Source: Candidatus Latescibacterota bacterium (GTDB lineage: Bacteria; Latescibacterota; UBA2968; UBA8231). From it: a stretch of DNA of 64,000 nucleotides. The translations under genes and the position numbers were made by a program. The stretch lies in contig OZ242318.1 of the NCBI GenBank assembly GCA_965208105.1, forward strand, positions 1,760,001 to 1,824,000, written 5' to 3'. A model generated the notes under the pieces. The model was not told where the DNA came from, made no database searches, and worked only from the letters and a program-made list of their open reading frames with translations. Within the stretch, counting starts at the first letter, position 1, and each line of letters begins with the position of its first letter. This document shows, piece after piece, positions 7,864-52,730 of the stretch.

Positions 7864-7936
7864 GGCCTGGACCTTCTCAGCTCCATGCCCTTTCCCGTGG
7901 AACGGAACCATACCTTCAGCACAAGGAGTGATATTG

Positions 7937-12168: not shown

Positions 12169-12209
12169 AAAAAAGGCATGTGGCCACGACGGATGCCCGC
12201 CGTGACCAC
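12169..12209 (-). terminator. Putative intrinsic terminator of the envelope operon
   Basis: Minus strand GTGGTCACGGCGG-GCAT-CCGTCGTGGCCAC (13-bp stem, 2 G-U pairs) followed by ATGCC-TTTTTT, about 40 bp after the 12248 stop. Confidence 0.5.
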
Positions 12210-12247: not shown

Positions 12248-15200
12248 CTATATCGGCCGTCCATACTCGGTAAAACCCACAAGGGTACGAACGAAAACCG
12301 ACCACTGATCGAATTCTCTCAACTGTTGAAAGGCGTCGTCGAACTTCTTCTTTCCCCTGCTCACTCCGATCACACTGTATAGATCGTATCCAAAATATCG
12401 AGACTGGTTTGTCAGCGTGATAAAGGATGTGCTCTGCTCAAAACTCTGGCTCTCCCTGAGCTGGTCTTTCACTCTGTATTGCAAGGGACCGAATCCCTGG
12501 ACGCCCCCTCGGAGAAACGTCCGGCTCATCAATGGGTATTCCAGTCTCAATATGGGGATCGACCGGGTCTCATAACGCAAATCCCGTCCGCCGTAGGTGC
12601 CGTCCACTCGGCGGTCGGCATCCTGGTCTTTGAGGCGCAGGAGAATGAACTTGTATTGGGGCTTGACACGCAGCTTGCCCCAATGCCAGGTATATTCGGT
12701 TTTGCTGACCCAGGTCCAGAAATCCAGCCGGTGGTCCCTCTGTTCGAAACCACTGTATAGCTGTCCCCCTTGCTGCCAATTGACCTTCACCCGCAGTTCC
12801 TGTTCCACGCCCAGGTCAGGCAAAGGCCGCAAATGTGCTGCCAGAAAAGTCTCGTTGACCAGACTGTCCCGATAAAGAAGTTGATCGGGACGAGACCCGC
12901 TGGAAAAAATTGGCACACCCCCAAATTCACTCGCCCGCTCAAGACCTCGATACCCGAACATGAGACCCCTGCCAGGTGTTTCCTTGAGCAACGTGGTTTC
13001 ATCGGGGATATCGTCTTGCACCCGCCGGATGTTGTTTTCAAACAACAGTCGACGCAGTTGCCTTATACCCTGGCGGTGGAAGATCAATAGCGCATAGGTT
13101 GATCTGTTTCGTCCTGCCCCTGCCACCTCCCTGACATTGTATTGTCCTGCGGCCAACGACCAGTGCCCGCTCAGATCCACCTGCCCAAAAAGGTGATAGC
13201 CCCGCTGGTCAGAATCATAGGGGTAGTCCGGATCCCAATCGTCTTCGCGGTGGTCGGGCTCGTCGTTGTTGTTGCGGTCCAGACCATATGCATAATCGAT
13301 GGGCTCCACGCCGTACATCAGAAACGGTTCTTCGTAGTCGGGAATGGAATTTCCGTTCCGATTGGTATCGGGGAAGCCATCGCCATCGTCGTCCTGACCC
13401 GGAAAAACGCCGTCGACGTCGAAATCCCGACGGTCATTGGGAAGTCCGGGAAGATTGCCAATGCGCTTATCGGGATAGCGGTCGCCATCATCATTGTCCT
13501 CGACCAAGTCCCAGTAAACCGTCTGGTTGGAAATCCCCGCCAGATTGCCTTCGGTCAATCCCACCTCAAATGGAACAAAGCTCCGCATCCCGGTGGTAAA
13601 ACCGGGATTCATCGAGAAGAACTCCACTCCCCCTCGTCCCGGCCCCCACCAACGGGTCGCATTGACGAAATAGGCCGAACCTCGCTCCACTGAATGCGGC
13701 CCTTCCAGGTATATCGCCTCCCCTTCCCGCTGCGCAGGATAACGCGAGTACCGCGCCGAGCGGGCGTATTCGCCGTTGATTTCCACGCCAACCAGGTCCA
13801 GACCCACATCCGCGCTGTAGGTGAACAGGGCCGTGTGCTCCCCTACCGCAAAACGCCTGAGCCTCAGGTTTGACCCGTCCTGCACATTCCCTGGAGCGCG
13901 CAGAACCGTCTGGTAGAAGCTGACGTTGTAGCGCGTGGGATGATTCCGGGCGCGGAGATTCTCGTTCATCAGGAAAGACACCTCCACCCGGTAGTCATTC
14001 CCCAACAGGGCTTCCACCTCCACAGATTCAACCAGCGGCTCCTGCCTCAAATCGAACATGAAAACCAGTTGTTCTTCACCATCGGCACTCAAAACATCGT
14101 CGGGCGATTCGACATCAAAAAGTGCAACAAGCCCTTCCAGATTGGTATCTCCGCTCACATCCACACCGGCCTCGTGGTCCAGCCGGTAGAGATAATCGGC
14201 AAAGAGCGGGACCTCCTGACGTCCCCTGTAGTAGCGGGGCTGGTTCTGGTAGTAACCGCGAAAGGTATTGTATACGATTGGACGGAATTCGCCTGTTGCC
14301 CGGGACACTGTGCCCGACTGTAGTGGGACTCCGTCCAGGTGCCTGACCACCTGCGGCCTCAGGTCTGACCGTGGCTCGCCATTTACGACCAGTTGAACAT
14401 CCTGCACCAAGGCCCCTCCCGCGCCATCAGCCGGAGAGTCATCGGTGAAACGCACTACCAGCCAGTCGAACATAGGCAGGCTGGATCGCACCACTCCTTT
14501 GAGCGAATTACCCGGCTGCGTGCTCCGGTATACATTCAGGTTGGTGCCATTGAGGCCAATGCGCAAATTGCCGATCTGGGTCTGCACTCGACTCGCGACA
14601 AGCATAGTGTTGTCGTCGGCAAAGTGACTGCTTTCATAGGAGTATGAAGGAGGGGTTTCATGGTATGACCTTGGCCGCTCAATTCGCGACCCTAGTGCCG
14701 TAAAGTCGAATTGAGGGGTGGAAACGTCAACGCGCAATCCGTTGAAATTCGCCATCGAAAGAGTCAACGGCGTGAAGCGTGCAATCAGCGCATCGCCGAC
14801 AATGGCGCTGTAGCCCCAGCTACCGTAGCCATCGCGCGCCATCAGCATGTTGTCGAATACTATGGTCCAGGGATGAAAGTCCTTGAAGATCTCGCTGCCG
14901 TATTCTTGCCCTGGCCTTCGGTCCTCGGTCCACCAGTAAATGGGATAGCCGGTGACGAGATAGTCCCCCATCGAGTTGTAGAAGGCCTGCGGCTGATCGG
15001 CGTAGGGGAAGGCGTGATTGGGATAATGGCCAAACTTCTGGTAGGCAAAATTTCGATAGGGAGGACGGTGTTGCCGTAATAGGGGATAGGAGGGTTCCAC
15101 CTGGCGCAGGGACAATCGCTCATCTTGCTGGGAATGAACCCCTTCTCCCCAGGCCAGAAATCCGCCCAAAATTGCAAAAAATAAAACACCCGAGAGGTGA

Positions 15201-15259
15201 ATTGCGGAACAATTTAACCTCCCGGGTGTGAAAAACCCATTACAGGAGCGTGAATCCAT
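12248..15259 (-). CDS. Large secreted/predicted outer-membrane protein, paralogue A, with acidic Ca-binding-like insert
   Basis: N-terminal hydrophobic signal, aromatic-rich amphipathic beta-strands, EDNDDGDRYPD...GVFPGQDDDGDGFPDTNRNGNSIPDYEEPFL. Aligns by eye with 21070-23886 and 23891-26665. Confidence 0.7.
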   Translation of the reverse strand: MDSRSCNGFFTPGRLNCSAIHLSGVLFFAILGGFLAWGEGVHSQQDERLSLRQVEPSYPLLRQHRPPYRNFAYQKFGHYPNHAFPYADQPQAFYNSMGDYLVTGYPIYWWTEDRRPGQEYGSEIFKDFHPWTIVFDNMLMARDGYGSWGYSAIVGDALIARFTPLTLSMANFNGLRVDVSTPQFDFTALGSRIERPRSYHETPPSYSYESSHFADDNTMLVASRVQTQIGNLRIGLNGTNLNVYRSTQPGNSLKGVVRSSLPMFDWLVVRFTDDSPADGAGGALVQDVQLVVNGEPRSDLRPQVVRHLDGVPLQSGTVSRATGEFRPIVYNTFRGYYQNQPRYYRGRQEVPLFADYLYRLDHEAGVDVSGDTNLEGLVALFDVESPDDVLSADGEEQLVFMFDLRQEPLVESVEVEALLGNDYRVEVSFLMNENLRARNHPTRYNVSFYQTVLRAPGNVQDGSNLRLRRFAVGEHTALFTYSADVGLDLVGVEINGEYARSARYSRYPAQREGEAIYLEGPHSVERGSAYFVNATRWWGPGRGGVEFFSMNPGFTTGMRSFVPFEVGLTEGNLAGISNQTVYWDLVEDNDDGDRYPDKRIGNLPGLPNDRRDFDVDGVFPGQDDDGDGFPDTNRNGNSIPDYEEPFLMYGVEPIDYAYGLDRNNNDEPDHREDDWDPDYPYDSDQRGYHLFGQVDLSGHWSLAAGQYNVREVAGAGRNRSTYALLIFHRQGIRQLRRLLFENNIRRVQDDIPDETTLLKETPGRGLMFGYRGLERASEFGGVPIFSSGSRPDQLLYRDSLVNETFLAAHLRPLPDLGVEQELRVKVNWQQGGQLYSGFEQRDHRLDFWTWVSKTEYTWHWGKLRVKPQYKFILLRLKDQDADRRVDGTYGGRDLRYETRSIPILRLEYPLMSRTFLRGGVQGFGPLQYRVKDQLRESQSFEQSTSFITLTNQSRYFGYDLYSVIGVSRGKKKFDDAFQQLREFDQWSVFVRTLVGFTEYGRPI

Positions 15260-15270
15260 CCAAAATTGCC

Positions 15271-16554
15271 TTATTGCGCGGACACCTTGAACTCGAAGGG
15301 ATATGTCACACTCACAGGAATAGCGCGTACCTGAACGGCAGCAGCGGCCCCTCCGCCAGGTTGCACTCCCTCTATAGCGTCTGCGCCTCCACCAACTGCC
15401 GGACCTGCGGCTTGAGCTCGCGCCGCCCGCAGCGATGCCACGTCAATCGGCCGGAAGGACCACCTCTGGACATCGGACTGGATGCACTCGACCACCCTCT
15501 CATTGTCGACGGTGGATTCCGTGATCCTGGTATCGGATATGGCCCCGCCTACTTCGATTGTGAAGCTGACCTCGACCCTGCCTTCCCTTGCCTCTCCCTT
15601 ATCGAATTCGTCGGTGAAACACCTGTTGAGAGCGGTAAGCCGCTGGCGGGCAACTGCCCGAATGGCGCTGATACTGCGGGTGCGGTCGTCAGGGAGATTC
15701 CCCAGCACCCGGGTAGGTCCATCCTCTGAGATCATCAGGTCTTCGGCGGCTTTGGCCTTCAGCGCATCGGCTTCCACAACGGTGCGCTCCACGCTGTGAT
15801 CAAATTCAAAGCGCAGATCCACTACATCTTCGGGCCTATCGAAGGCACCGAATTGCAGGACAAATTCCTTGATCGTCAATACAACTGTCTCTGTTTTGGG
15901 ATCGACCGGGTTGAATACTATGAAGCCGCCGTAGTTTTCACCCTTGAAGACAGGCTGCTCCTCTTCGTAGTTGTTGCTGCGCACAGTACCCATCCTCAAC
16001 TCGAAACGATAAAATTCATTGCCACTCTGGCCTCTCCGAGAGCGATAGTAGTTTTCAAAATTGTTCTGTACCGCGGAAGAGGAAATGCCATAGGAGCGGT
16101 GAAATTCGCCCCGGTCGGTCTCGAGAATGACTTCGCTTGGATCGATCATAACCTTGGGGAAGGTTCGGTTGAAAATCGAAACCCTGAACACGGTGAAGCG
16201 ATTAGGCGTATAGCCAAGGCGCGGATCAATCCAGTTGCCGTATGTATATGGATTGGTGGAGTACTTGCCCTTGGTTGACTCGTCAGGAAACATCTCGTTC
16301 AGTTCGTCATCGGTCATGGGTTTGACCTCGACCCGCATTCCTGACCACTCATATGAGACAGTGCCATCCTCCTGCACAGTGTACTGTGCTCCCTCGATAG
16401 GGGACCCCTCATCCAGCGGAGCAAGGAGAACCTGTTGCTTAACGGCAGGAGGGAAGAGGAAACAGCCGGCCATGGATAAAATCAGCAAGCTCGGAATCCA
16501 CAAGCTCCATCGCGTCCGGAGAGATACCTTTCGGTAAAAAGAGCGATTCTTCAC
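15271..16554 (-). CDS. Lipoprotein with C-terminal TonB_C-like (AgmX/PglI C-terminal-type) domain
   Basis: Lipobox LILSMAG-C. C-terminus IRAVARQRLTALNRCF...EGRVEVSFTIEVGGAI...VVECIQSDVQRWSF...VSVTYPFEF matches the AgmX/PglI C-terminal pattern. GTGA overlap with the upstream gene. Confidence 0.7.
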   Translation of the reverse strand: MKNRSFYRKVSLRTRWSLWIPSLLILSMAGCFLFPPAVKQQVLLAPLDEGSPIEGAQYTVQEDGTVSYEWSGMRVEVKPMTDDELNEMFPDESTKGKYSTNPYTYGNWIDPRLGYTPNRFTVFRVSIFNRTFPKVMIDPSEVILETDRGEFHRSYGISSSAVQNNFENYYRSRRGQSGNEFYRFELRMGTVRSNNYEEEQPVFKGENYGGFIVFNPVDPKTETVVLTIKEFVLQFGAFDRPEDVVDLRFEFDHSVERTVVEADALKAKAAEDLMISEDGPTRVLGNLPDDRTRSISAIRAVARQRLTALNRCFTDEFDKGEAREGRVEVSFTIEVGGAISDTRITESTVDNERVVECIQSDVQRWSFRPIDVASLRAARAQAAGPAVGGGADAIEGVQPGGGAAAAVQVRAIPVSVTYPFEFKVSAQ

Positions 16555-17762
16555 TTCGTCGTCTCCTTGTAGAAGTCGATCTGTTGCTGGGCAATTCCAC
16601 CCTCCTGCAGCAGGGCGAAAACTACGAGATTAACCCCAATTTGCAACTGGGGTTCATTGCGGAACTCCTTCTCCCAGGCAATCCCATAAGCCTTGTTGGA
16701 AAAAACTACAACCAGTCGATCTCCCAGGAAGATTCCTTCGAGATAGGGGACCTCCGGGCGAAAATCTCTTTGGAAATTGACTCGGTCTTCGCTGCGCTGC
16801 GGCGGCGGCCCGTCCTCGAAATCAAAAAAGCTGTGGTAGATAGGATGATCATTGGGAATGACCCTGAACCGCGCATCCCGACCCAGAGCGTCCTTCAACA
16901 TCTGGCGCAATGAGGCCTCCGCCGGGCTGTACTCTATATCGGGCGTGGCATTCTCCACGAGGGCAAAACCGCCCCCCCGCAAATAAGCCTCCAGATTTTT
17001 TATTTCAGGTTCAGTCGGCTGAAACGCCGCGCCGACGGTGATATATACAAAAGGCGCACGGAAAATATCGCGCTCATCAAGGTAGAGATGGTCGTCCACC
17101 TCAGCGCGAATCTGGGTGAAATCGTTGATCGCCTCAACCAATTCAAAAATGGCACGCTGAGTAGCAGGTTCAAAGTCATTGCCCCATGCAAGGGCCAAGT
17201 AGACAAATCCGGTGATGTTTTGCTTATCCGTGGGATCCTGGATCACCAGACCCTTGTATTTGCCGATGTCTAACGCATCCAGGTCAAGAAATTCTTCCTG
17301 CATGCTGATGCGCTTTTCCGGCTCCTTGGGACTCGCAATGGCAACCCTCTGGATTTCAGGCTGGACAACCTCGAGACCCAGATCCGCGCCAGTGTCGACC
17401 CCAAAACGAAAGGTTTTTATCTTGCCGATCAGATCGGGACGGCGAATCTGGAGCCTACGGGTAATTTCGGGTTTGGCTGCACTAACCTGCCGGGTCATTT
17501 TTCTCTTGGGAATCTTGCGCTTTTCAAATTCGAAAGGCTTGGTCATCCGGGGCTTGCGCACCACGAGGTGCATCACGGGCGGCTTGGGGGCCTTTTTCTC
17601 CCGCTCGAGAGTGGCCAGATATATAACGGGCAGGGCCAATACCACCAGGGCAGCGACCAACGCCCAATAAAAAATCCTGCGCAGGCGCGCCAATAGTTCA
17701 TCAAGGCTAAGGAAATCCGCCGGCTTGGCAAAGCGCTTTCTTATTTCAGGACGATCTGTCAC
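16551..17762 (-). CDS. Membrane-anchored DUF4159-domain protein with basic Pro/Lys/Arg linker
   Basis: One TM (IFYWALVAALVVLALPVIYL), linker KKAPKPP...RKPRMTKPFEFEKRK, then DUF4159-like APFVYIT...NLEAYLRGGGF...IPNDHPIYHSFFDF...GVNLVVFAL. Confidence 0.7.
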   Translation of the reverse strand: MTDRPEIRKRFAKPADFLSLDELLARLRRIFYWALVAALVVLALPVIYLATLEREKKAPKPPVMHLVVRKPRMTKPFEFEKRKIPKRKMTRQVSAAKPEITRRLQIRRPDLIGKIKTFRFGVDTGADLGLEVVQPEIQRVAIASPKEPEKRISMQEEFLDLDALDIGKYKGLVIQDPTDKQNITGFVYLALAWGNDFEPATQRAIFELVEAINDFTQIRAEVDDHLYLDERDIFRAPFVYITVGAAFQPTEPEIKNLEAYLRGGGFALVENATPDIEYSPAEASLRQMLKDALGRDARFRVIPNDHPIYHSFFDFEDGPPPQRSEDRVNFQRDFRPEVPYLEGIFLGDRLVVVFSNKAYGIAWEKEFRNEPQLQIGVNLVVFALLQEGGIAQQQIDFYKETTK

Positions 17763-17786
17763 AAATTCCCCCTTAATGAAATAGTT

Positions 17787-20700: not shown

Positions 20701-21044
20701 GCCTCTTCCTCCAAAGCCGCCTTGCGCTCGGGCTGGCGGGTCCGATATGATTTTATCTGTGCCTCTTCAGCTTGCTTGAAGTAAGAGTTCCCCGTCTGGT
20801 AGAGAGCGATCTCCTTGATGGGGGCTTCGATTTCCCCGATCTCCTCGGTAATCTCCTCTGCGACCAGCAGATCGCTCTCAATACTGTTAATGCGTTCGTA
20901 GTTTTCAATCGCCTGTTTGTAGTCCTCCTGGCCATAGAACTTTTGTGCTTGCTTGAAGGAAGCGCGCACCTCTTCCGGCGTGGGCACCAGGGTAGAACCT
21001 GCAATCAGGCCTATCAGCGAAGCGATGAGAATTAAAGCAGCCAT
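17787..21044 (-). CDS. Very large periplasmic TPR protein (BamD/YbgF/CpoB-type repeats)
   Basis: Signal-like N-terminus MAALILIASLIGLIAG. More than 20 TPR units such as YPDNRWLVNVLYNAGWAYF, FPAGYQAERALFQIGEAYF, LAPDALFRAGEARY, FPNADLADDAAYNLAW. Confidence 0.85.
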   Translation of the reverse strand: MAALILIASLIGLIAGSTLVPTPEEVRASFKQAQKFYGQEDYKQAIENYERINSIESDLLVAEEITEEIGEIEAPIKEIALYQTGNSYFKQAEEAQIKSYRTRQPERKAALEEEAKAGFRKSASYFRRSEETATSPKLKALARNRLVSVLYESGDYEEVIREGKAFEELYPDNRWLVNVLYNAGWAYFDTEQYEESIEAFQRLVRHFPAGYQAERALFQIGEAYFNQGKFEEAAPWYQDVVDRQRIDQMSERELLRMRREKIAGLVDETALELAAKAQIKVGDCYAKSGNSENAVEAYKKVINAFAQEQRLVSEGYIRLADMYYDSGDYEGAVRTYHEAIDGSNNRYFQASMQSLLAEHYYKTENYIKAIEEYELYLDAYVDVASAAGFSPSWAEYKVARSHFEVAERFRLEEVADSAAAAYDRAIGVYGDIERDYPESDLAMAATKFNTALCFQMKGLLGDEDGVARALEIYQVIVEEEADPDYLRSALLQMARIKYQDGEYEDAISAYNRILKDFPDAAERHAAQFELALCYRDLREVETAIAEFYKIDPNSGLLPKAMLEASRLLAEAQDYDGALAALDNGLEQVTDPEERGRFYYMKGRTLIEVDNYESAIEALAQASASSTDKEIRQGADYGRGVSLLKLRRYGEAVAILKPLLESDNEDLVVSTRRMIGLAHLEMGREEEAINDYTALVESAKDLEERAEHLVVLTELYYGIKDYGKVEEICREIIALDIPESRGDNPYFLKEKAYFLLGDTFNQRQDIDALISIYKTALNKYPDSYYSGDMSFILGQVLFEKENLQETTRVLSQYLEKFPRHPNRSYGMYYLGYALFNLTQFERAAGVFATLASEYSRTELAPDALFRAGEARYNLEEFEKALTFYNTLLDEFPNADLADDAAYNLAWSLFNLKREEEAMAAFQQMADDYPASPLASKSQFTVGDFLYNEERYEEAIEIYEAVLRRFPDSEESEKIPELLADLKEVVAYVAYAEVEAVFAEALESGDKDKFREAIEGFKEITQKYPGTESEIGALSNMGVCYESLGEWRKAVGVYDRVLNSFDGPDAEQQEAYRFARMHKEWIETARL

Positions 21045-21069
21045 ATTCTTTATGCCTGGGTTATGTAGG

Positions 21070-23886: not shown

Positions 23887-23890
23887 TCGC

Positions 23891-26665: not shown

Positions 26666-26688
26666 AAGCCTCTCTCTTAAGGAAACAA

Positions 26689-28737
26689 TCAGTAGGCCAC
26701 AGCAACTGGTCGAATCCGAATTTCGTCTCCCCGATCTAGACGGGCTTTAACTCGCACCAGGTAGATACCGGGAGGCACTACATCGCCTTCATCGTCCCGA
26801 CCATCCCAATATCCCGGCGCCGTCGAGGCATCGCGGTTGCCAGGCGGGCGCAAGTACTGGCCACCGACAAGACGGGAATCAAGTTGACGAACCACCCTGC
26901 CACTCAGGTCGAGAATACTAATTTCCATATCCTGAGGTTCACTAACCCGAGAAAGGGTGAATTCAACGACGGTAGCGTCATTGATGTTATCGCCATTAGG
27001 AGTAATCACTTCGGGACTGATTCGCACGGAACTGAGGACCGTGCCTTCCACATCAGTTGCGCGAACACTCCATGATCGCCCGGACGAAGTGTCTTCCTCG
27101 CCGTTGAGGATCTCGTCCGAATCGGGTGCAAAAAATTGGGACGAAAAATCAAATTCGTTGGTCAGGAGCCGGGCCGCAAAGCTCACTTCAAGAGTTCCGT
27201 CACTATTCCAAGGCTCCGCGAAGGTAATCTCTATGCCATTGCCCAGAATCACCCTCTCCTTCTCGGTGACTCCCGCCGGCAAGGTGAGCTGCACGTCGGT
27301 AGCCAGACTCGGCATGGCAATGAGCAACCTTTCCACTCCAGCGTCATCGTCTCCAAATGAGAGGTCGAGGGTGTAGGTAAATGTGGTGTCTCGGCCCAAA
27401 ATCACACTGTTTGGGACAACCCAACCCAGTGCCTGGGATACTGGAAACGTATCGGTGAACTCGACGGAAAGATTGTCAAATCGAGGGGCAAGGTCCTCGA
27501 ATTCAGCACTCATATTGACCCGGTACTGCAGGAGATTCCTGGGTTCCGGTACGGTCAACTCCGCTTCGAAATCGGTAATTTCATCACTCCATTCACTCCA
27601 TGCGGCCTCGTCATCCTGGTTTGCACTTCTAAACTGCAATGAAATGGCCGCCCCCTCGGGAATTTCTCCATCCCACCGGACCCGGCCGAAATTTTTTCTC
27701 CCCTGTGCCCCCAGATCAATCGCCTCGGAAACATATGCTCCAGAAGGGGTGGCGCCCGTTCCAAAAACTTGAATTTCCGCCACCCGGGAACGTCGCAGCG
27801 GATCTACCTGGGCGATAACCACGCGGACGAAGCGAGCGAACAGCTCGTCGATCTGCACGGCGGTCGACTCTTTTTCTTCAATGTCATTGAGAACACCCAT
27901 CTCGGTCCACTGGAAACCGTCGTTGCTCACCTGAACCGCGTAGCCACGAAGGGAATTTTCCTCGAAATCTTCCATATTCTCACCCGCGGTGAGCACGCGG
28001 ACCTCGTTAACCAGCCTCGGGGTCAAAAGGTCGACTGTGGCCGCGGTATTAATCGCATCGACATTGACCGTCCATACACTTCCGGGATCTCCGTCGAAAA
28101 CCTCGGGCCTATTCGAGGACGGTTTGTTAAGGGCCAGATTTTCGCCCTCGACGTTGCGCAAGGTGAGGCCGCCATCGGACCTTCCCAGATCTATGCCGCC
28201 GGGGAAACCATAGATTATCTCCGCGTTGAGGCTGTCCACCCTCCCCGACACACTACCCAGGTCCAAATTACCTCCCTGCACCGGAGACCAGGCATCGTCC
28301 TCACTTAAATCGGCGGTGGTCCAATCGCCCCCCGTCTGGGCCTGTTCGGTCCAACGCCAGATCTCGTTCAGGCCGCTGGGTGTACTGATCCAGGCCTCGT
28401 TATCCGTGGATACTTCAACTAGCAGTCCACTGCCCAATCCTCCGCCTCGATTTTGCACGATAACCGCAATGTCGTTTTGGCTCCCAACCTCGACCGGGTA
28501 CTCCTCCATGGCGGACCAGTCGGCGTCCGAGCCTAGACTGCTACCGTTGAAAAACACCTCGTACTCGTCGACGGCCGTAATGCGCAAGGTTCCACTTCCG
28601 GCCTCAGCTGCGCCAAAGGAATATCGGAAATAGAGGGTTTGTCCCCACTCATCCACTATCCATTCATCCGCCCCGAGACTCGAACCCATCAACACCAGAG
28701 CAAACCCCGTTGCTAGAATTTTGCTAATCGGCTTCAT
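26689..28737 (-). CDS. Secreted protein with discoidin/F5-8 type C-like domain and C-terminal FlgD-Ig/T9SS-CTD-like domain (copy 2)
   Basis: Signal MKPISKILATGFALVLMGSSLGA; LRITAVDEYEVFFNG; NLALNK...FDGD...W; YAVQVSNDG; ARFVRV...VAEIQVFG; ITPNGDNINDAT...WDGRDDEGDVVPPGIYLVRV...VAVAY. Confidence 0.78.
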   Translation of the reverse strand: MKPISKILATGFALVLMGSSLGADEWIVDEWGQTLYFRYSFGAAEAGSGTLRITAVDEYEVFFNGSSLGSDADWSAMEEYPVEVGSQNDIAVIVQNRGGGLGSGLLVEVSTDNEAWISTPSGLNEIWRWTEQAQTGGDWTTADLSEDDAWSPVQGGNLDLGSVSGRVDSLNAEIIYGFPGGIDLGRSDGGLTLRNVEGENLALNKPSSNRPEVFDGDPGSVWTVNVDAINTAATVDLLTPRLVNEVRVLTAGENMEDFEENSLRGYAVQVSNDGFQWTEMGVLNDIEEKESTAVQIDELFARFVRVVIAQVDPLRRSRVAEIQVFGTGATPSGAYVSEAIDLGAQGRKNFGRVRWDGEIPEGAAISLQFRSANQDDEAAWSEWSDEITDFEAELTVPEPRNLLQYRVNMSAEFEDLAPRFDNLSVEFTDTFPVSQALGWVVPNSVILGRDTTFTYTLDLSFGDDDAGVERLLIAMPSLATDVQLTLPAGVTEKERVILGNGIEITFAEPWNSDGTLEVSFAARLLTNEFDFSSQFFAPDSDEILNGEEDTSSGRSWSVRATDVEGTVLSSVRISPEVITPNGDNINDATVVEFTLSRVSEPQDMEISILDLSGRVVRQLDSRLVGGQYLRPPGNRDASTAPGYWDGRDDEGDVVPPGIYLVRVKARLDRGDEIRIRPVAVAY

Positions 28738-28769
28738 AAATTCATCATCCCATATCGTATGTGTAGAGC

Positions 28770-30848
28770 TCAATAAGCCACGGCCACCGGCCGGACCCGA
28801 ATTTCTTCTTCCCGACCCAGAACAGCTCGCACCCGAACGAGGTAGATTCCAGGCGGGACAACGGCTCCTTCTTCGTCCCGGCCATCCCAGTATCCAGGAG
28901 CTTCGGAAGGATCGCGGGTGACCGGTGGGCGCAGATACTGACCACCCACCAGACGGGACTCAAGTTGTCGAATCACCCGGCCGGAAAGATCGAGAATGCT
29001 GATTTCCATGTCCTGAGGTTCAATAACCCTGGAAAGGGTGAATTCAACCACTGTCGCGTCGTTGATGTCATCGCCATTCGGGGTGATAACCCCCGGATTG
29101 AGCCGCAACTTGCTGAGCACCGGGCCACTAGCGCCAGTTGCGCGGACCTTCCAGGATCCGTCCAGAAAATTTTCCTCGCTGTTGAGGGCATCTAACTCAC
29201 CAGGACCGAAGAGCTGGGCGGCAAAGACAAACTGACCCGTCAAAAGGCGAGCAACAAAACTGACCTCGAGGGTCCCGTCTGTTTTCCAGGGATCGGCAAA
29301 TTTTATCTCGAGGCCGTCTCCCAGAATCGCCATATCCTCCTCGGCGACTCCCTCAGGCAACTTGACCTGCACATCCGAGGCCAGGCTGGGCATGGCGATC
29401 ACCAGCCGTTCCACACCCGCGTCGTCATCACCGAAGGTGAGGTCGAGGAAATATGTAAAGGTCGTATCCCGGCCCAAGATCACGTCATTGGGCACAACCC
29501 GGCTCCGGGCTTCGGATACTGGAAAGGTGTCGGAGAATTCAATGGCTAGACTGTCGAGGCGAGGGGGTGCATCTACAAATTCAGCACTGAGATTGACCCT
29601 GTACTGCAACAAAGTCTTGGGTTCCGGCACTGAGAAGATTCCTTCATTCTCCACGACCTCTTCACTCCAATCGCTCCAGGAATCCTCCTCCTGATCAGCG
29701 CTCCTGAACTGCAGGGAAATGGAGGAGCCTTCAGGAATGTCACCCCACCACCGAACACGCCCGAAATTTTTGGCTTTGTCCGTTCCCAGGTCAAGTGCCT
29801 CCGAGATGTAAGTCCCAGATAAAACAGCTCCTTGTCCCAGCACTTGGATCTCGGCGACTTCGGAAATGCGCTGAGGGATGACTTGGGAGATCACAATGCG
29901 GACATAACGAGCGAAAATTGGATCGAATTGGATAGAGGGACGCTCGAACAGCCCCGCTTCCAGAATGTTGTTGAAAACTCCCACCTCGGTCCACTGAAAC
30001 AAGTCATTGCTCACCTGAACAGCAAAACCCACCAGGGAATTGGCTTCAAAATCCCCCTCTTTGGTTGGATTGGTTAGGATGCGTACCTCGGAAACCAGGC
30101 GCCGGGTCAGAAGGTCGATGGTTGCGGAGCCGTTCAACGTCTCATCTCTGACAGTCCACCAGGTATTTGGACGGCCGTCGAAGGCCGCCGCTCGTTCCAG
30201 TGACCGCCTTCCAATGGCCAGGTTCTCGCCCTCGATACTGCGCAGGGTAATTCCGCCCTCGGGGCGACTGAGGTCAACGTCACCGGCAAACCCTGCAATA
30301 ACCTCGGTGTTTAAAGTATCCTCCCACCCTGAAATTATGGCCCGGTCGAGATTTCCTCGCTGGACCGGCTGCCAGGTATCCAGCTTGTTCAATTCAAAAG
30401 TATCTTCCATGAGCCACCCGACATCTTCCCCTTCTTCCTGTGGCTCAACAGTCCAGAGCCATAGCTCATTAAGCCCAGCGGTAGTACTTATCCAACTTTT
30501 CTCTTCGGTATCCAGTTCAAGCAGCAAACCGCTGCCTTCATTGCCCCCGCTGTTGCGCACCACGACACCGATGTGGTTCGCCCTTCTCCCCAGAGCAACG
30601 GTGTACTCGTCCATGCTCTTCCAGTCGTCCCCCGCGTCCGTAACCCTTTCGCCGTTGAAAAAAAGCTCATATGCGTCAACTGCCGTCACGCGCAGGGTGG
30701 CATCCGCCGGCTGCGAGGAATTGTTGAAGGTAAAGCGGTAATAAGTGGTTTGTTCCCACTGCCTGGCCTTCCATTCCGTCGCGCCGCTGGTACGCCCCTC
30801 CATCAAAAGGGCAATTCCCAAAATCGAAATCAAAATTTTTATTTTCAT
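28770..30848 (-). CDS. Secreted protein with discoidin/F5-8 type C-like domain and C-terminal FlgD-Ig/T9SS-CTD-like domain (copy 1)
   Basis: Tandem paralogue of 26689-28737 with the same domain order and near-identical C-terminal ~250 aa (ITPNGDDINDATVVEFTLSRV...APGYWDGRDEEG..VPPGIYLVRV...RPVAVAY). The start could be 30857. Confidence 0.78.
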   Translation of the reverse strand: MKIKILISILGIALLMEGRTSGATEWKARQWEQTTYYRFTFNNSSQPADATLRVTAVDAYELFFNGERVTDAGDDWKSMDEYTVALGRRANHIGVVVRNSGGNEGSGLLLELDTEEKSWISTTAGLNELWLWTVEPQEEGEDVGWLMEDTFELNKLDTWQPVQRGNLDRAIISGWEDTLNTEVIAGFAGDVDLSRPEGGITLRSIEGENLAIGRRSLERAAAFDGRPNTWWTVRDETLNGSATIDLLTRRLVSEVRILTNPTKEGDFEANSLVGFAVQVSNDLFQWTEVGVFNNILEAGLFERPSIQFDPIFARYVRIVISQVIPQRISEVAEIQVLGQGAVLSGTYISEALDLGTDKAKNFGRVRWWGDIPEGSSISLQFRSADQEEDSWSDWSEEVVENEGIFSVPEPKTLLQYRVNLSAEFVDAPPRLDSLAIEFSDTFPVSEARSRVVPNDVILGRDTTFTYFLDLTFGDDDAGVERLVIAMPSLASDVQVKLPEGVAEEDMAILGDGLEIKFADPWKTDGTLEVSFVARLLTGQFVFAAQLFGPGELDALNSEENFLDGSWKVRATGASGPVLSKLRLNPGVITPNGDDINDATVVEFTLSRVIEPQDMEISILDLSGRVIRQLESRLVGGQYLRPPVTRDPSEAPGYWDGRDEEGAVVPPGIYLVRVRAVLGREEEIRVRPVAVAY

Positions 30849-30865
30849 ACGACCCATTATTCCAG

Positions 30866-31333
30866 TTAGGCATCTGCTCCGATATAGGGTTGGTTGTCCC
30901 CAACGGTAATTGCCTTAGTCTCTGGGTTCACCACCATCTTCTGATAAGCCCCGAAGGGCTTCCAGCGTCTCGCTTTATTTTCCCATTCGTACTCTGGTTC
31001 TTCCTTGGGATTCGCAATTCCGATCAGGTTGAATGCCTCCTGCTCGTCAAAGGTATCCATATACTTGAAGGTGTAGGTTACGTAGTTGGACCTGCCGTCC
31101 TTCAAAACCACGAAAACCCAGACTCCCTTCACGTCCTTCCACTGAATGGTATCTATGTTATTGTGCTTGTGAATAAAAATGTCACACTCACCTAGTCTCT
31201 CCTCCAACGCCTCTCGAGTTTGGCCCAGCAGTTCGTAAACATCCAATTTTGTCTTTGACTGATTACTGTCACTACAACCAACCCCAATCACGAGAGCCAG
31301 AGGAACCAGGAGCTTCCAGTTGATCAACGCCAT
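30866..31333 (-). CDS. Small lipoprotein, hypothetical
   Basis: MALINWKLLVPLALVIGVG-C lipobox-like signal; first gene of the leftward operon. Alternative start at 31381. Confidence 0.6.
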   Translation of the reverse strand: MALINWKLLVPLALVIGVGCSDSNQSKTKLDVYELLGQTREALEERLGECDIFIHKHNNIDTIQWKDVKGVWVFVVLKDGRSNYVTYTFKYMDTFDEQEAFNLIGIANPKEEPEYEWENKARRWKPFGAYQKMVVNPETKAITVGDNQPYIGADA

Positions 31334-31381
31334 GCCAAGACGTACTTGCAACCAATTGGTATTTTTAGACTTAACTGCCAT

Positions 31382-31908
31382 TATCTTCGTTGTATTCTCA
31401 ACGCGGCCCCCCGTTTTTTCCTAGTTTCACCCATAACATTGGCAATCTGGCGGCCATTGTCAAGGATTTTGTTTGGGCGCATCGGACGACAAAAATTAAA
31501 ATAATATTTTGTTTTTAAAAAATTTATAGAACTATTAATTCGAGCCGTAAATTCCTCTAGTCCCTCTCTACTCCCTCAAGTTTGAATGGTTCTGTTTCTT
31601 GGCAATGTGAAGGTATTGTCCAGCGTCAAATTGATCATTATTATCTGGAATAAGTCCGGGCTTTGTCAAGGAAAATATTCTTTGGGGATCGTCAAGGATT
31701 TTATTAAATTGATTTCAAAGATACCCGGTAAATCCACTTGCAGAGGTTCGAGGAGACATAAGTGCCAAAATATTCAAAATATTCTTGGGTTTTGTTTCTT
31801 GTTTTATTACATTGTGGATGATTTGGATGGGTAGATGATCTTAATGCAATATTATCTTTAACGACAACTTAACGGCAACATCCCTTCTATAATGAAAAGG
31901 AGAATTCA
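31382..31908. promoter_or_regulatory. AT-rich divergent promoter region
   Basis: About 530 bp, strongly AT-rich, between divergent operons. Minus-strand TTGACA at 31463-31458 and 31669-31664, the latter 18 bp from GATAAT. AAAAGGAG RBS before exbB. Confidence 0.6.
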
Positions 31909-32646
31909 ATGGACACTTTAGTTTCCGGTGGCGTTTTGATGGTCCCTCTCGGACTTTGCGCGCTGCTTGGCCTTGCCTTCATCATCGAGAGATTTTTGGT
32001 CCTGGGGAAGGTTCCGGACGACAGTACCGCCCAAAATGAATTTGAAGAAGCGGAACGCATTCTGCTGAACGATGGCGAAGTCGCAGCCGCTCAGCACTGC
32101 AACAACGGTAGTGGTCCGCTGAATTACATCTTTGCCGCACTGATCAAACGCTTTGACACGCTTATGGTCGAACTTCGGGAATTCAAGCAGACCAATGAGA
32201 GGCTCGGGCAATTGGCGGAACAGGCTGGGGCTGGAAGCCTCGGAAATTTTCTAATCCAGCAAAAGGAGCTGTCGGACCTCAAGGAGGAATTGATTCTGGA
32301 GACCGAGGAAGCCGGGAAAAACTACCTGGGGAAATCCCTTGTATTGCTGAACACGATAGGAAATATTTCGCCGCTGCTGGGCCTTCTGGGTACCATTCTG
32401 GGTATGATCACCGCCTTCGAGGCCATTGCGGTTGCAGGAACTGGCGATCCCAAGGTGGTTGCCGGCGGTATCTCACAGGCTCTCGTCACCACCGCGACCG
32501 GGTTGTCCATTGCCATCCCTTCCATTGTGGCCTATCGCTACTTTGCCCGCAGGGCCGACAGTCTCCGATCCAAACTCAATGTCTACGGCCATGCCTTTGC
32601 CAATACCCTGCTTGTGGCTGGCCAGACCCAGATGGAGAAAGAATAA
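31909..32646 (+). CDS. exbB: MotA/TolQ/ExbB proton channel protein
   Basis: GGVLMVPL...IIERF; LNTIGNISPLLGLLGTILGMITAF; VAGGISQALVTTATGLSIAIP. Confidence 0.92.
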   Translation: MDTLVSGGVLMVPLGLCALLGLAFIIERFLVLGKVPDDSTAQNEFEEAERILLNDGEVAAAQHCNNGSGPLNYIFAALIKRFDTLMVELREFKQTNERLGQLAEQAGAGSLGNFLIQQKELSDLKEELILETEEAGKNYLGKSLVLLNTIGNISPLLGLLGTILGMITAFEAIAVAGTGDPKVVAGGISQALVTTATGLSIAIPSIVAYRYFARRADSLRSKLNVYGHAFANTLLVAGQTQMEKE

Positions 32647-32655
32647 GGGCAGCCC

Positions 32656-33081
32656 ATGGCCATTGTTCATCGACGCACACGAGAAAGTTTATCAGGGGAA
32701 GAAGACACAGACCTGACTCCTTTGATTGACTGTGTCTTCCTTTTGCTGATCTTCTTCATGGTTACAACTGTCTTTCTTCACGCAAAAGGGCTTGATGTGG
32801 ATTTGCCCGCCAAGAGCGAAGCGACCGAGCAGGAGAAGAAAAAGGATATCAACATTTATATCGATCCTGAAGGCAGGATTCAGCTCGGAGGCGAAGATGT
32901 TGCTCCGGAAGGGTTAGTGAATCGAATCAAGGAGGCCATGGTAGAAGCCAACAACGAGAACATTATTGTCCAGGCCCATTTTGACTGCCCCCAGAAACAT
33001 GTGATTCTGGTAGTCGATGCAGCCAAAGCAGCGGATGTAGTCGGCATTGCTTTTGCCAAGGAAGAAGGAGGTAGTCTCTAG
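32656..33081 (+). CDS. exbD: ExbD/TolR biopolymer transport protein 1
   Basis: DLTPLIDCVFLLLIFFMVTT (conserved TM Asp), GLDVDLP. Confidence 0.92.
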   Translation: MAIVHRRTRESLSGEEDTDLTPLIDCVFLLLIFFMVTTVFLHAKGLDVDLPAKSEATEQEKKKDINIYIDPEGRIQLGGEDVAPEGLVNRIKEAMVEANNENIIVQAHFDCPQKHVILVVDAAKAADVVGIAFAKEEGGSL

Positions 33082-33082
33082 A

Positions 33083-33496
33083 ATGCCCAGGCGGCGATCT
33101 TCCATGCAACCGGAGAGTACCGAACTCAATCTGACCCCGATGATCGATTGCGTATTCTTGCTGATTATCTTCTTCATGGTCACAACGGTCTTCAAGGAAC
33201 CTCACAGCCTTAAGGTTGAACTTCCTGAGGCACGCCAATCCAATATCGTGGAAGAGAAAAAGCTTGTGGCCAGCATCGATAAATCAGGGCAGATGGAGAT
33301 CAACCGCCATTTGGTGAGCTTGGCGGAGCTTCCCAGTTTGCTTGCCCAGGAAAAGCAGAATACCCGCAGCATAACCCTGATTATCCGCACGGATAAAGAC
33401 ACCCGACATGGCCCTGTACTGGAAACAATGGAAATCGCCAAGAGACTTCAAATTGAAAAAGTCGTATTGGCGACAGAGGAACTCAAGGACAATTAG
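33083..33496 (+). CDS. exbD: ExbD/TolR biopolymer transport protein 2
   Basis: ELNLTPMIDCVFLLIIFFMVTT, LKVELPEA, IRTDK. ATG at 33083 follows AGGAGG. Confidence 0.92.
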   Translation: MPRRRSSMQPESTELNLTPMIDCVFLLIIFFMVTTVFKEPHSLKVELPEARQSNIVEEKKLVASIDKSGQMEINRHLVSLAELPSLLAQEKQNTRSITLIIRTDKDTRHGPVLETMEIAKRLQIEKVVLATEELKDN

Positions 33497-44802: not shown

Positions 44803-44810
44803 ATACTGAA

Positions 44811-45482: not shown

Positions 45483-45492
45483 GCCTCGATCC

Positions 45493-51571: not shown

Positions 51572-51691
51572 TGACTGCGGGCCTGTCGATATCTTGGGTC
51601 GGCGGGACACAGCTATCGCAGCCTCCGCCGCAACAACCGGCAAACCATTGAACTCAGGCGCTGAGCCAGGAGAAATCGAAAGGATGTACGA

Positions 51692-52699
<1,008 letters not shown>

Positions 52700-52730
52700 C
52701 CGAGAATCTACTTCCCGGCAAGGTTCCGAG

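Follow-up and report, generated by a model that had tools for sequence, protein, structure and literature searches.

A conserved motor, lectin and giant-barrel gene cluster in Latescibacterota, possibly a glycan-uptake system

Introduction

In a 64,000-nucleotide stretch of a Candidatus Latescibacterota genome (contig OZ242318.1, positions 1,760,001 to 1,824,000; the window), genes for an ExbB-ExbD motor lie beside genes for lectin-like proteins, periplasmic proteins and giant outer-membrane barrels. Do these genes make up one machine, and what would it do? Our preferred reading, held at a little short of even likelihood, is a PMF-energised glycan-uptake system. It would be an analogue of TonB-SusC/D in which the membrane anchor has a DUF4159 head and the TonB-CTD fold belongs to a lipoprotein.

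Organization and expression of the locus

Nine close-set genes (g1-g9) occupy positions 12248-31381 of the minus strand, divergent from exbB-exbD-exbD. They are tightly packed and co-directional, as in the original prediction: the inter-gene distances from g1 to g9 are 8, -4, 23, 4, -23, 24, -4 and 11 bp (largest gap 24 bp), and the stop and start codons overlap at g2/g3 and g7/g8. The GC content is 0.532 in the operon and 0.60-0.64 in its flanks. One AT-rich region separates the operon from exbB-exbD-exbD, as was also predicted (31382..31908; 527 bp, GC 0.364), and both promoters presumably lie within it. At the operon end there is an intrinsic-terminator-like hairpin (12170..12209, minus strand; a T run after a 13-bp stem, 9 of whose pairs are G-C); the hairpin itself, earlier placed at 12169-12209, was found at 12209-12180, directly past the g9 stop. 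The domains recovered (ExbB, two ExbD, DUF4159, TPR, F5/8 type C and AgmX/PglI C-terminal) agree with the earlier description, and a signal peptide, lipobox or TM anchor is assigned to each product by reading the translations by eye.

Contigs of 4 RNA libraries (2 studies), which are assembled from a relative of about 95% identity, are silent on strand, level and single transcript and may include DNA carry-over, span g8 to g2 as well as exbBDD, and their depth falls over the 31382..31908 spacer in 4 of 4 runs. They give a hint of cluster expression.

Conservation of the gene set

Related loci were counted where full 10-kb flanks were available (51 loci). Homologues of the lectin are found in 51 of them, of the A-barrel in 49, of the third barrel in 46, of the TPR protein in 50, of the DUF4159 protein in 49 and of g8 in 48, the last three occurring together in 45. 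The common gene order is lectin, barrel, barrel, barrel, TPR, DUF4159, g8, and it is maintained among loci just 31-40% identical. The first gene in 23 of the 51 loci is a homologue of g1 (30866..31381, minus strand), a small putative lipoprotein of 171 aa with a lipobox-like Cys read from the translation and no Pfam or NCBIfam match. Often exbB-exbD-exbD comes next, co-directional and within one gene train; exbB is present in at least 21 of the 51 loci, 17 of which have it on the same strand. The figure is a minimum, since the fetched flank often ends at g8. In 4 chromosome-level relatives with exbB beyond the flank, an exbB of 58-60% identity is located 4-19 kb past the cluster. Of 81 genomes of the phylum, 45 have barrels and 48 have the g8 family. 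The two are found together in 43 genomes, while 2 carry barrels but no g8, 5 carry g8 but no barrels and 31 carry neither. The gene set is therefore supported as one conserved unit, in line with the earlier claim.

The cluster could also consist of two functionally unrelated modules that co-travel, a lectin-barrel surface module and a motor/TPR/DUF4159 module, which we consider very improbable. Divergent transcription of the motor in the window and the 4-19 kb between exbB and the barrels in several relatives fit such a pairing, and TPR-tolQ-tolR-tolR-transducer sets exist in other phyla without such barrels, as far as the account in PMC12204202 goes. Against it, gene order is kept at 31-40% identity, g8 is present in 43 of 45 barrel-positive genomes, and there are the codon overlaps at g2/g3 and g7/g8.

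A dedicated motor

The motor genes, all on the plus strand, encode an exbB/tolQ-type proton channel subunit of 245 aa (31909..32646; PF01618, E 1.1e-27) and two exbD/tolR-type subunits, of 141 aa (32656..33081; PF02472, E 9e-26) and 149 aa (33047..33496; PF02472, E 5e-30). Both exbD products have an Asp inside the predicted TM segment, as read from their translations. The real start of the second subunit may be further downstream.

Four ExbB homologues are encoded in the genome, three within clusters of the present system and one with a canonical tonB. In the two further clusters of this genome (B and C), exbB lies inside the gene train, between the TPR gene and a g8-like gene. The sole canonical TonB_C of the genome adjoins the fourth exbB-exbD-exbD. 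The absence of classical receptors and canonical TonB noted originally is correct at the locus but does not extend to the genome, which has about 20 classical TonB-dependent receptors, with PF00593 matched 23 times, and one canonical TonB_C. Together with the co-directional exbBDD of many relatives, these findings support the exbBDD of the window as a dedicated motor and a member of the cluster, as was predicted, with a housekeeping exbB-exbD-exbD-tonB operon elsewhere.

Periplasmic components

The g6 gene (17787..21092, minus strand) encodes a TPR protein of 1101 aa with an N-terminal hydrophobic anchor or signal, matching TPR families and YbgF/BamD-type repeats. Its neighbour g7 (16551..17762, minus strand) encodes a bitopic inner-membrane protein with a DUF4159 head (PF13709, E 6.5e-31), which also matches the uncharacterised protein of PDB 4i66 (9.6e-7). 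It consists of a short cytoplasmic N-terminus, one TM helix, a conserved basic linker and a periplasmic head, the helix and linker being read from the alignment. In the same alignment, no His is found in the TM helix of the window g7 and its orthologues, and the TonB/TolA motif SxxxH is confined, among g7 homologues, to some paralogous clades. Here, g7 is a candidate force transducer, and we infer its coupling to the motor.

The vWA-headed transducers are close to g7 in design: they are three-part TonB/TolA-like proteins of unknown role with a non-TonB globular head, and their genes neighbour a single tolQ-like gene, a pair of tolR-like genes and a TPR gene. By Pfam, however, the head in the cluster is DUF4159, which may differ in fold from their vWA head, and they carry an SHLS/His motif, which the window g7 lacks. 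In the main text of the paper describing them, Latescibacterota, giant barrels, the g8 lipoprotein and lectins do not appear.

The g8 product (15271..16554, minus strand) is a lipoprotein with a conserved beta-sandwich and a TonB-CTD-fold domain, as judged from its lipobox, its model and NF033768 (AgmX/PglI C-terminal; 60.8 bits, cut-off 40). The lipobox Cys is almost invariant among homologues. In the model (pLDDT 84.9), residues 288-425 match the TonB CTD (Z 8.0, rmsd 2.5, 83/83 residues aligned) and residues 58-257 the YcdA lipoprotein sandwich (Z 8.0); the TonB-like domain is missing from 26 of 57 g8 homologues. The TonB_C-like lipoprotein proposed earlier is thus confirmed in fold and lipobox, but as a motor-bound transducer g8 is ruled out, because it is lipid-anchored and not TM-anchored.

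The original prediction likened the locus to the Myxococcus Agl-Glt machines, whose core Luciano et al. (2011, PMC3169522) give as aglRQS with gltD, gltE, gltG and gltC, with an unknown role outside myxobacteria. Both that machinery and the present cluster combine one TolQ-like and two TolR-like genes with a secreted TPR protein of very large size, a TonB-like C-terminal domain of AgmX/PglI type and outer-membrane proteins, and both exist in several copies per genome. The likeness is one of architecture only; in the cluster the TPR protein, at roughly 1100 aa, has a GltD-like size and the C-terminal domain scores above cut-off. Nevertheless, a relative of that complex whose motor drives the lectins as surface adhesins, for gliding or surface translocation, has only a slight probability. 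The full-length GltG model reaches just 34 bits (cut-off 650), g8 is lipid-anchored and has neither an FHA domain nor a TM helix, g6 matches no GltD- or GltE-specific model, and the window cluster gave no specific match for GltD, GltE or GltC. The giant barrels come from another family, and the DUF4159 protein and the lectins are extra. Moreover, since the housekeeping Ton operon likewise has one exbB and two exbD, the motor composition is not diagnostic, and about 38 C barrels beside catabolic genes are ill-suited to motility.

Three lineages of giant barrels

Three giant outer-membrane barrels are encoded on the minus strand: g4 (23891..26665; 924 aa, lineage A), g5 (21070..23886; 938 aa, lineage B) and g9 (12248..15259; 1003 aa, lineage C). 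The AlphaFold2 model of g5 is a large beta-barrel (pLDDT 85.2, pTM 0.87) with about 26-28 long strands by our own count from the DSSP string, and g4 and g9 are called barrels by homology. The large paralogues are accordingly outer-membrane barrels, as predicted, and the g5 model is neither a soluble fold nor an ordinary TonB-dependent receptor. Against solved structures it has no specific match, only generic large outer-membrane barrels (SlpA, MtrB, LptD, SprA, SusC).

In a set of 1.84 billion proteins the family is represented 446 times, and it has no Pfam match above cut-off, including Plug and TonB_dep_Rec. The barrels show no recognisable plug or TonB box, a conserved N-terminal motif being a candidate only, and they carry a conserved acidic insert. 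In the tree, clades A, B and C have support of 1.0 each and are sorted by gene position, clade A containing every position-1 barrel; they are three old lineages of an undescribed family. Lineages A and B occur once in the genome, at the window locus, and lineage C in about 38 copies (34 of the genome's own ORFs score about 750-1280 bits against g9).

For the g5 model, Foldseek ranks Deinococcus SlpA (PDB 8ae1, 7zgx) first (E 1.8e-8), and the VIA alignment to 7zgx_A covers 420 residues, the longest among the listed chains (Z 11.1). Sub-threshold SlpA_C matches were found in 5 of 32 family members (best 30.2 bits, cut-off 35). However, TM-scores are just 0.17, the cluster barrels have no SLH or coiled-coil part, and the family profile misses SlpA among PDB sequences, so that kinship is only a candidate. 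This resemblance raises a role in envelope integrity, namely a Tol-Pal-like or SlpA-like tether or stabiliser of the outer membrane, in which large porin-like barrels would work with a TPR protein resembling CpoB. The YbgF/CpoB repeat model matches g6 in eight stretches, and TolB_N was not found in the genome (93.9% complete; control positive in E. coli and Caulobacter). We find this role highly doubtful: there is no complementary pattern, as families f2 and f3, without barrels (0/30), are also without TolB_N (0/30). None of the products has a peptidoglycan-binding or SLH domain, and a housekeeping tether would not be expected to come in three cluster copies, with lectins and with barrels expanded 38-fold.

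Lectins, sorting tails and barrel context

The g2 product (28770..30857, minus strand) is a secreted lectin-like protein of the discoidin (F5/8 type C) class whose C-terminus forms an Ig-like tail of T9SS type (PF22633 1.8e-10, PF00754 8.1e-10), and g3 (26689..28773, minus strand) is its paralogue (879 bits to g2; PF22633 4.4e-11). The CTD-like tails seen earlier do have matches in g2/g3, but all are weak and under the curated cut-offs: CHU_C 22.8 of 27 bits and FlgD_ig 24.4 of 27 (both for the g3 tail), and TIGR04131 16.7 of 35. FlgD_ig-type tails have 58 matches across the genome, and SprA and PorV-like genes, whose presence the original prediction had left to be checked, are in the genome together with a PorZ-like gene, all outside the locus. 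CTD sorting is genome-wide, not locus-specific, and a machine handling CTD cargo, as proposed, is unneeded.

In Bacteroidota, cargo proteins with a type-B CTD are served by barrels of the PorP/SprF type. By analogy, the giant barrels may be the cognate outer-membrane partners of CTD proteins, with a motor that moves or loads lectins for surface display or anchoring and no import. In all 51 full-flank loci the barrels are immediately preceded by a lectin with a type-B-like tail, and the g2 and g3 tails have the weak CHU_C and TIGR04131 matches given above. CTD proteins are also enriched near barrels: 11 of 43 barrel ORFs have a CTD-type match within 3 kb (7 of 43 if four hand-added sites are left out), compared with 6.4% of the genome within 3 kb of a site. 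We nevertheless regard display as rather unlikely, given that most C-type barrels (32 of 43 ORFs) lack a CTD match at that distance, that the barrels show no detectable PorP/SprF similarity and match no Pfam family, and that the enzyme and permease context of C barrels better suits uptake.

This context was taken from the scattered C-type barrels, not from the core cluster, with neighbouring genes called by a crude GC3-based caller. Among the 168 proteins encoded near these barrels are 7 DUF6785/6784 membrane proteins, 8 CTD proteins, 10 PhyH, 5 GFO/IDH/MocA, 3 sulfatases and 7 glycosidase-type proteins. Of the secretion, display and uptake options of the original prediction, such surroundings (sulfatases, glycosidases, permeases) would favour uptake.

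A possible glycan-uptake apparatus

In the glycan-uptake reading, the genes would form one envelope-spanning apparatus restricted to part of Latescibacterota. A dedicated proton motor of ExbB plus two ExbD in the inner membrane would act via g7, with its TonB/TolA-like topology and DUF4159 as the head. The roughly 1100-aa TPR protein g6 and the g8 lipoprotein (beta-sandwich and TonB-CTD-fold) would reside in the periplasm, and the three anciently diverged barrels, A (g4), B (g5) and C (g9), in the outer membrane, where they may form a single complex. The lectins g2 and g3 would leave via the general type IX pathway, be displayed on the surface and bind glycans, presumably the substrate; the barrels would move these inward, the motor paying for gating or release. 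The C-type barrel may be the exchangeable, substrate-specific part, with roughly 38 copies in utilisation-type loci.

The function would be a counterpart of TonB-ExbBD with SusC/SusD, made of different proteins, and if this reading is true, a new kind of powered glycan-uptake system. Both have an ExbB/ExbD proton motor, an adjoining bitopic periplasm-spanning protein, a TonB-CTD-fold domain, many paralogous outer-membrane barrels near glycan enzymes and inner-membrane permeases, and surface carbohydrate-binding proteins beside the barrels. Unlike Ton-SusC/SusD, the cluster has barrels without Plug or TonB_dep_Rec, with about 26-28 strands (a model reading) and the acidic insert; its TM protein has DUF4159 in place of TonB_C and, in the window, a helix without His; its TonB-fold domain is on a lipoprotein; glycan binding at its surface falls to CTD-sorted lectins in place of SusD lipoproteins; and the genome also retains a separate classical Ton system.

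Past the terminator, a gene at 10603..12129 (minus strand) encodes a 508-aa protein with no Pfam match and no signal peptide by eye. It belongs to a 17-copy family recurring beside C-type barrels (neighbour cluster c1), and a homologue follows g9 in loci L039-L042; the protein is cluster-associated, outside the core.

Gene layout and domain content of the locus

The gene layout and domain content of the original prediction are borne out by ORF coordinates and Pfam/NCBIfam searches. Nine genes on the minus strand (g1-g9) are separated by 8, -4, 23, 4, -23, 24, -4 and 11 bp in the direction from g1 to g9. The first, g1 (30866-31381), encodes a small putative lipoprotein with no Pfam/NCBIfam match, and is followed by two discoidin lectins with F5/8 type C domains, g2 (28770-30857) and g3 (26689-28773), and by two giant barrels, g4 (23891-26665) and g5 (21070-23886), neither of which has a Pfam/NCBIfam match. 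Then come g6 (17787-21092), a TPR giant of 1101 aa, g7 (16551-17762), a TM-anchored protein with a Pfam DUF4159 domain, and g8 (15271-16554), a lipoprotein whose AgmX/PglI-type C-terminal domain scores above the cut-off. The last gene, g9 (12248-15259), is the third giant barrel, also without Pfam/NCBIfam match, and a terminator-like hairpin lies 3' of it at 12209-12180. The divergent unit on the plus strand contains exbB (31909-32646) and two exbD genes (32656-33081 and 33047-33496), all assigned by Pfam.

The spacer between the two units is 527 bp with a GC content of 0.364, compared with 0.532 in the operon and 0.60-0.64 in the flanks. On a larger scale, the cluster together with its right-hand neighbours (12248-38000) has a GC content of 0.50-0.56 against 0.60-0.68 in the flanks, and the same arrangement is kept in the orthologous clusters of relatives (L039-L042).

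Assembled contigs of four metatranscriptomic libraries from two studies derive from a relative with about 95% identity. They span the genes from g8 to g2 as well as exbB-exbD-exbD; such contigs carry no strand, level or single-transcript information, and may include DNA carry-over. Single contigs span g8/g7, g6/g5/g4 and all three motor genes. In each of the four runs contig depth falls across the spacer, and the cover is low within g9 (13600-14927). In two runs of one study, contigs start at 31899-31900, 9-10 nt 5' of the exbB start codon, which is a curiosity only, because contig ends are not transcript ends.

The giant barrel family

None of the 22 word-indexed homologues of g5 contains a Pfam domain; where named, they are called 'hypothetical protein', and one comes from Candidatus Latescibacteria. 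In an exhaustive HMMER search of 1.84 billion representatives, the barrel family has 446 matches at E <=0.001 and 134 at <=1e-30. The AlphaFold2 model of g5, built from an 81-row alignment, reaches a pLDDT of 85.2 and a pTM of 0.87, and shows about 26-28 long strands (counted on the DSSP string) and two inserted regions, one of which is a strongly conserved acidic, Asp/Asn-rich segment (residues about 556-648); a conserved motif also lies near the N-terminus (about 38-58). Using this model, Foldseek returned only outer-membrane barrels (SlpA, MtrB, LptD, SprA, SusC) at low TM-scores, with SlpA on top (0.17). VIA-align matched 16-strand Omp85 barrels over the C-terminal half with middling Z, and SlpA (7zgx) over 420 residues with a Z of 11.1. 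At the sequence level, SlpA_C (PF21620) gives sub-threshold matches in 5 of 32 family members (best 30.2 bits, cut-off 35), and the family profile found no barrel, SlpA included, among the PDB sequences. The 30 nearest clusters in the Protein Atlas are all unnamed, and the nearest one bearing a Pfam domain, DUF6029 (0.89; 160 shared features), is a lead only. We conclude that g5 forms a large barrel in the outer membrane and that its family, which may be distantly related to SlpA-type barrels, is undescribed.

A TonB-dependent transporter or SusC has a plug within a 22-strand barrel, and the giant barrels show no match to that design. The corresponding Pfam domains (PF07715, PF00593) were found neither in g4, g5 and g9 at E 0.01 nor in the 32 family members at E 1, and SusC and RagA chains align with the g5 model only as generic barrels. 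The large paralogues are not soluble proteins or ordinary TonB-dependent receptors, either of which would have been fatal to the original prediction.

The motor genes and their putative periplasmic partners

Known energy routes to the outer membrane are few, namely Ton, Tol, the Agl-Glt machinery and the type IX motor. By PF01618 (E 1.1e-27; 96.7 bits, cut-off 22.9), the exbB product is an ExbB/TolQ proton-channel subunit; all its scores with the equivalog models of ExbB and TolQ are under the cut-offs. The two PF02472 (ExbD/TolR) proteins each carry an Asp in the hydrophobic segment, as read from the translations. No single protein of the locus combines an N-terminal TM helix with SxxxH, a Pro-rich linker and TonB_C as a classical TonB does, since g8 has the TonB-CTD fold but is a lipoprotein, and g7 has a TM helix and linker but a DUF4159 head and no His in the helix. 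In the rest of the genome, the fourth exbB adjoins two exbD genes and the sole canonical TonB_C, and classical receptors are found with 23 PF00593 matches. The canonical TonB_C has a separate exbB-exbD-exbD of its own, so the alternative that the motor of the cluster is paired elsewhere did not hold.

According to the translation and alignment, g7 begins with a short cytoplasmic segment, crosses the membrane with one TM helix and continues through a conserved basic stretch into the DUF4159 head, a layout which corresponds to the TonB/TolA-like topology. In the alignment, the TM helix contains no His in the g7 of the window and its orthologues, and SxxxH exists only in some paralogous clades. 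The only solved relative is Hoch_4089 (PDB 4i66), an uncharacterised protein. From this topology and the neighbourhood, we infer that g7 is the transducer; a predicted complex of its periplasmic part (140-403) with mature g8 (32-427) had a score of 0.01 and a mark of 0.32, which tells neither way.

The closest described counterparts of g7 that we met are the TMH-linker-vWA transducers of Williams-Jones et al. 2025, which adjoin a TPR gene, tolQ and two tolR and are given there as of unknown function (PMC12204202). Common to both are the TMH, the linker, a globular non-TonB head and the TPR/tolQ/two tolR neighbourhood. However, the SHLS/His motif reported in the TMH of those transducers is absent from the g7 of the window and its orthologues, and Pfam assigns the head to DUF4159. 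The main text of that paper does not mention Latescibacterota, and its supplements may list such clusters.

The lipobox Cys is nearly invariant in the g8 family, and its lipid anchor excludes g8 as a classical TonB. Its model (pLDDT 84.9) contains a beta-sandwich resembling the Bacillus lipoproteins YcdA and YjhA (Z 8.0 and 7.3), and its C-terminal domain superposes on the TonB CTD 9ddz_A (Z 8.0, rmsd 2.5, 83/83 residues), with further TonB and TolA CTDs ranking behind. The TonB-like domain is present in 31 of 57 g8 homologues, and the other 26 are short forms that do not contain it. In the Protein Atlas, the N-domain of g8 has only unnamed Latescibacterota lipoprotein clusters as neighbours, plus DUF4352 at 0.75. 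Three relatives (G061, G066, G067) contain 11-12 g8-type lipoprotein matches, mostly short forms, versus 3 in the host genome; in these relatives the lipoprotein may have multiplied along with the barrels.

The Agl-Glt core complex was defined by Luciano et al. 2011, where its role outside myxobacteria is called unknown (PMC3169522). A machine of that kind, moving adhesins or serving motility, would agree with the match of g8 to the GltG/GltJ domain model NF033768 (60.8 bits, cut-off 40), with the GltD-like size of g6, and with the count of one TolQ-like and two TolR-like subunits in AglR and AglQ/AglS. However, the same 1+2 layout occurs in the housekeeping tonB operon of this genome, g8 scores only 34.2 bits against a cut-off of 650 with the full-length model NF033760, and g6 matches only generic TPR, YbgF, BamD and PorW models. 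Moreover, GltG and GltJ are TM-anchored proteins with a TonB-like C-terminal domain, and GltG also has an FHA domain, whereas g8 has a lipobox and no FHA. We consider such a mover quite improbable here.

Conservation of the gene set

Related loci were sought with a single protein, and the proteins of the window were used to label their ORFs. This gave 79 loci, most of them titled Candidatus Latescibacterota and some Gemmatimonadetes, Myxococcales or 'uncultured bacterium'. In the 51 loci with full flanks, we found the lectin in 51, the A-barrel (lineage of g4) in 49, the third barrel in 46, the TPR gene in 50, DUF4159 in 49 and g8 in 48, and the gene set is indeed conserved together in relatives, as the original prediction needed. 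At least 21 of the 51 carry exbB (on the same strand in 17); the retrieved sequence often stops around g8, so that an exbB further out would have been missed. The co-directional order lectin, A, B, C, TPR, DUF4159, g8, exbB, exbD, exbD is seen in many loci (e.g. L092-L094, L105), and four chromosome-level relatives carry an exbB of 58-60% identity 4-19 kb past the cluster.

The host genome contains two more clusters, cluster B at about 3.850-3.877 Mb and cluster C at about 4.581-4.599 Mb. Besides DUF4159 genes, lectins and C-type barrels, both have a TPR giant and a short g8-like gene, and exbB stands between these two. An ExbD homologue was not found in cluster B, and cluster C has two. That two unrelated modules merely travel together seems quite improbable. 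The interval from exbB to the g8-like gene in cluster B measures only about 230 bp (G000:C1:3868628-3870248; L010 4628-6248). For want of any supporting Pfam match, we rejected two assignments in clusters B and C: ECF sigma factors for the ~170-aa genes that precede the DUF4159 genes, and anti-sigma factors for the DUF4159 proteins themselves.

Across 81 genomes of the phylum, barrels are present in 45, the g8 family in 48, both in 43 and neither in 31, counts which are descriptive because related genomes are not independent. Barrels occur without the g8 family in two genomes (89% and 64% complete), and the g8 family without barrels in five, all of one family with weak matches near 1e-11. TolB_N was not found in the host genome, as would suit an envelope tether; however, TolB_N and barrels show no complementary pattern across the phylum, and we give the tether little credence. 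A Tol-Pal replacement was rejected in the same way for lack of phyletic complementarity, with TolB_N in 13 of the 81 genomes and in none of 30 in two barrel-less families.

Barrel copies and lineages in the host genome

The host genome is a single contig of 4.85 Mb (93.9% complete, 8.1% contamination) with 43 barrel-family ORFs at E <1e-20. A FastTree phylogeny (-fastest) was built from 98 barrels, namely the host copies of >=750 aa, shorter ORFs being excluded, and the barrels of 21 loci hand-picked from the 79. Three clades were obtained, each with a support of 1.0. Clade A contains all first-position barrels and g4, clade B all second-position barrels and g5, and clade C the third-position barrels, g9, all scattered host copies and the barrels of clusters B and C. 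From this clade membership, A and B are present in the host genome only within the window, and C is the expanded lineage. The barrel ending cluster C (G000:C1:4596478-4599145; L012 6478-9145) is broken into two ORFs (438 and 474 aa) that overlap, likely a frameshift or pseudogene.

Lectin tails and type IX secretion

The curated CTDs are type A (TIGR04183/PF18962) and type B (TIGR04131/PF13585). For the CTD-type tails claimed for g2 and g3, related models do give matches, with CHU_C at 17.5 bits in g2 and 22.8 bits in g3 (cut-off 27) and TIGR04131 at 16.7 bits in g3 (cut-off 35). FlgD_ig matches the two tails below its cut-off as well and reaches 27.0 bits, equal to its cut-off, in a lectin paralogue of cluster B; with the scores of g2 and g3 all under the cut-offs, the assignment is soft.

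No SprA, PorV or GldK/L/M/N genes were found within 12248-33496 using Pfam/NCBIfam. Elsewhere in the genome, SprA_N matches once (126 bits), and there are a PorV-like gene (158.9 bits, cut-off 250) and an envelope-related PorZ_N/Reg_prop-like gene at 42577-44802 of the window; FlgD_ig has 58 matches in the genome as a whole. GldM (TIGR03517) was not found in the genome, in a search run without a positive control. Type IX sorting is general in the host genome, and from the SprA_N, PorV-like, PorZ_N-like and FlgD_ig matches it follows that the lectins can get to the surface without the cluster. Of the 43 barrel ORFs, 11 have a CTD-type match at most 3 kb away (7 of 43 if four lectin sites added by hand are left out), against 6.4% of the genome. 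That the barrels anchor or display CTD proteins would fit this proximity; we consider it unlikely.

Neighbours of the C-type barrels and a possible function

Genes next to the barrels were called by a crude GC3-based rule and clustered, and 168 of their proteins were scanned against Pfam. Among them are 10 PhyH dioxygenases, 8 FlgD_ig-tailed proteins of about 650 aa, 7 DUF6785+DUF6784 membrane proteins, 7 proteins of glycosidase type (GH38, GH78 rhamnosidase, two GHL6, one MGH1/GH63-like, two BNR), 5 GFO/IDH/MocA oxidoreductases, 4 FG-GAP/ASPIC proteins, 3 sulfatases plus one FGE-type enzyme, 2 polysaccharide deacetylases and 2 enolase-superfamily dehydratases. Besides these, a 17-copy family of about 500-660 aa recurs beside C-type barrels. 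It matches nothing in Pfam, and inspection by eye shows no signal peptide; two members lie in the window, at 10603-12129 (-) and 7517-9505 (+). Its repeated motifs may resemble those of a beta-propeller glycosidase. By context, which is not proof, the surroundings of the C barrels look like a set of glycan-utilisation loci. The DUF6785+DUF6784 neighbour cluster has 12 members (7 confirmed by Pfam), which are candidate inner-membrane partners; these proteins, of about 650-716 aa, stand beside C-type barrels at 12 loci (e.g. L014 12458-14608, L027 13474-15414).

The cluster encodes a real, conserved envelope machine, apparently unstudied so far; we found no account of it in the literature on DUF4159 or on Latescibacter with TonB or type IX secretion. 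It falls among machines built from a motor and a transducer, to which it adds a new giant-barrel family and a core-plus-exchangeable-barrel architecture, and its function we infer. Our tentative preference, held with slightly less than even confidence, is a motor-energised glycan-uptake system, which would work like Ton with SusC/D and not be a member of Ton. If so, the expanded C-type barrels would be markers of substrate-specific loci in these genomes.

More doubtful is a bolder form, in which the cluster would represent a third class of PMF-powered outer-membrane transport beside TonB-dependent transporters and the Tol-Pal system. Energy would pass from the DUF4159-headed transducer to a hetero-oligomer in which two barrels (A, B) are invariant and C is exchangeable. 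The C position would be filled by one or another of ~38 paralogues that differ in substrate, each served by a dedicated surface binder and by a DUF6785 permease in the inner membrane. Latescibacterota would then have built their own equivalent of a polysaccharide-utilisation locus from unrelated parts.

Latescibacterota is an abundant uncultured phylum, marine and sponge-associated, and the glycan-uptake reading offers a concrete idea for how its members could take up complex glycans. The cluster would also add a well-defined further example of an energy route, with three unstudied components: the giant barrels, the DUF4159-headed anchor and the TonB-fold lipoprotein. In Youssef et al. 2015, outer-membrane passage in the phylum is assigned to unspecific porins and classical TonB import (PMC4454575).

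A second DUF4159 context in the window

Several envelope-related genes are found in the region 42577-53639 of the window, and four of them make up a second, different DUF4159 context. Next to the PorZ_N/Reg_prop-like gene, it contains a DUF4159-like ORF (44463-45482; E 1.2e-9 to g7), a DUF4175 protein (45493-48840), a TPR protein (48837-50312) and a DUF58 protein (52731-53639).
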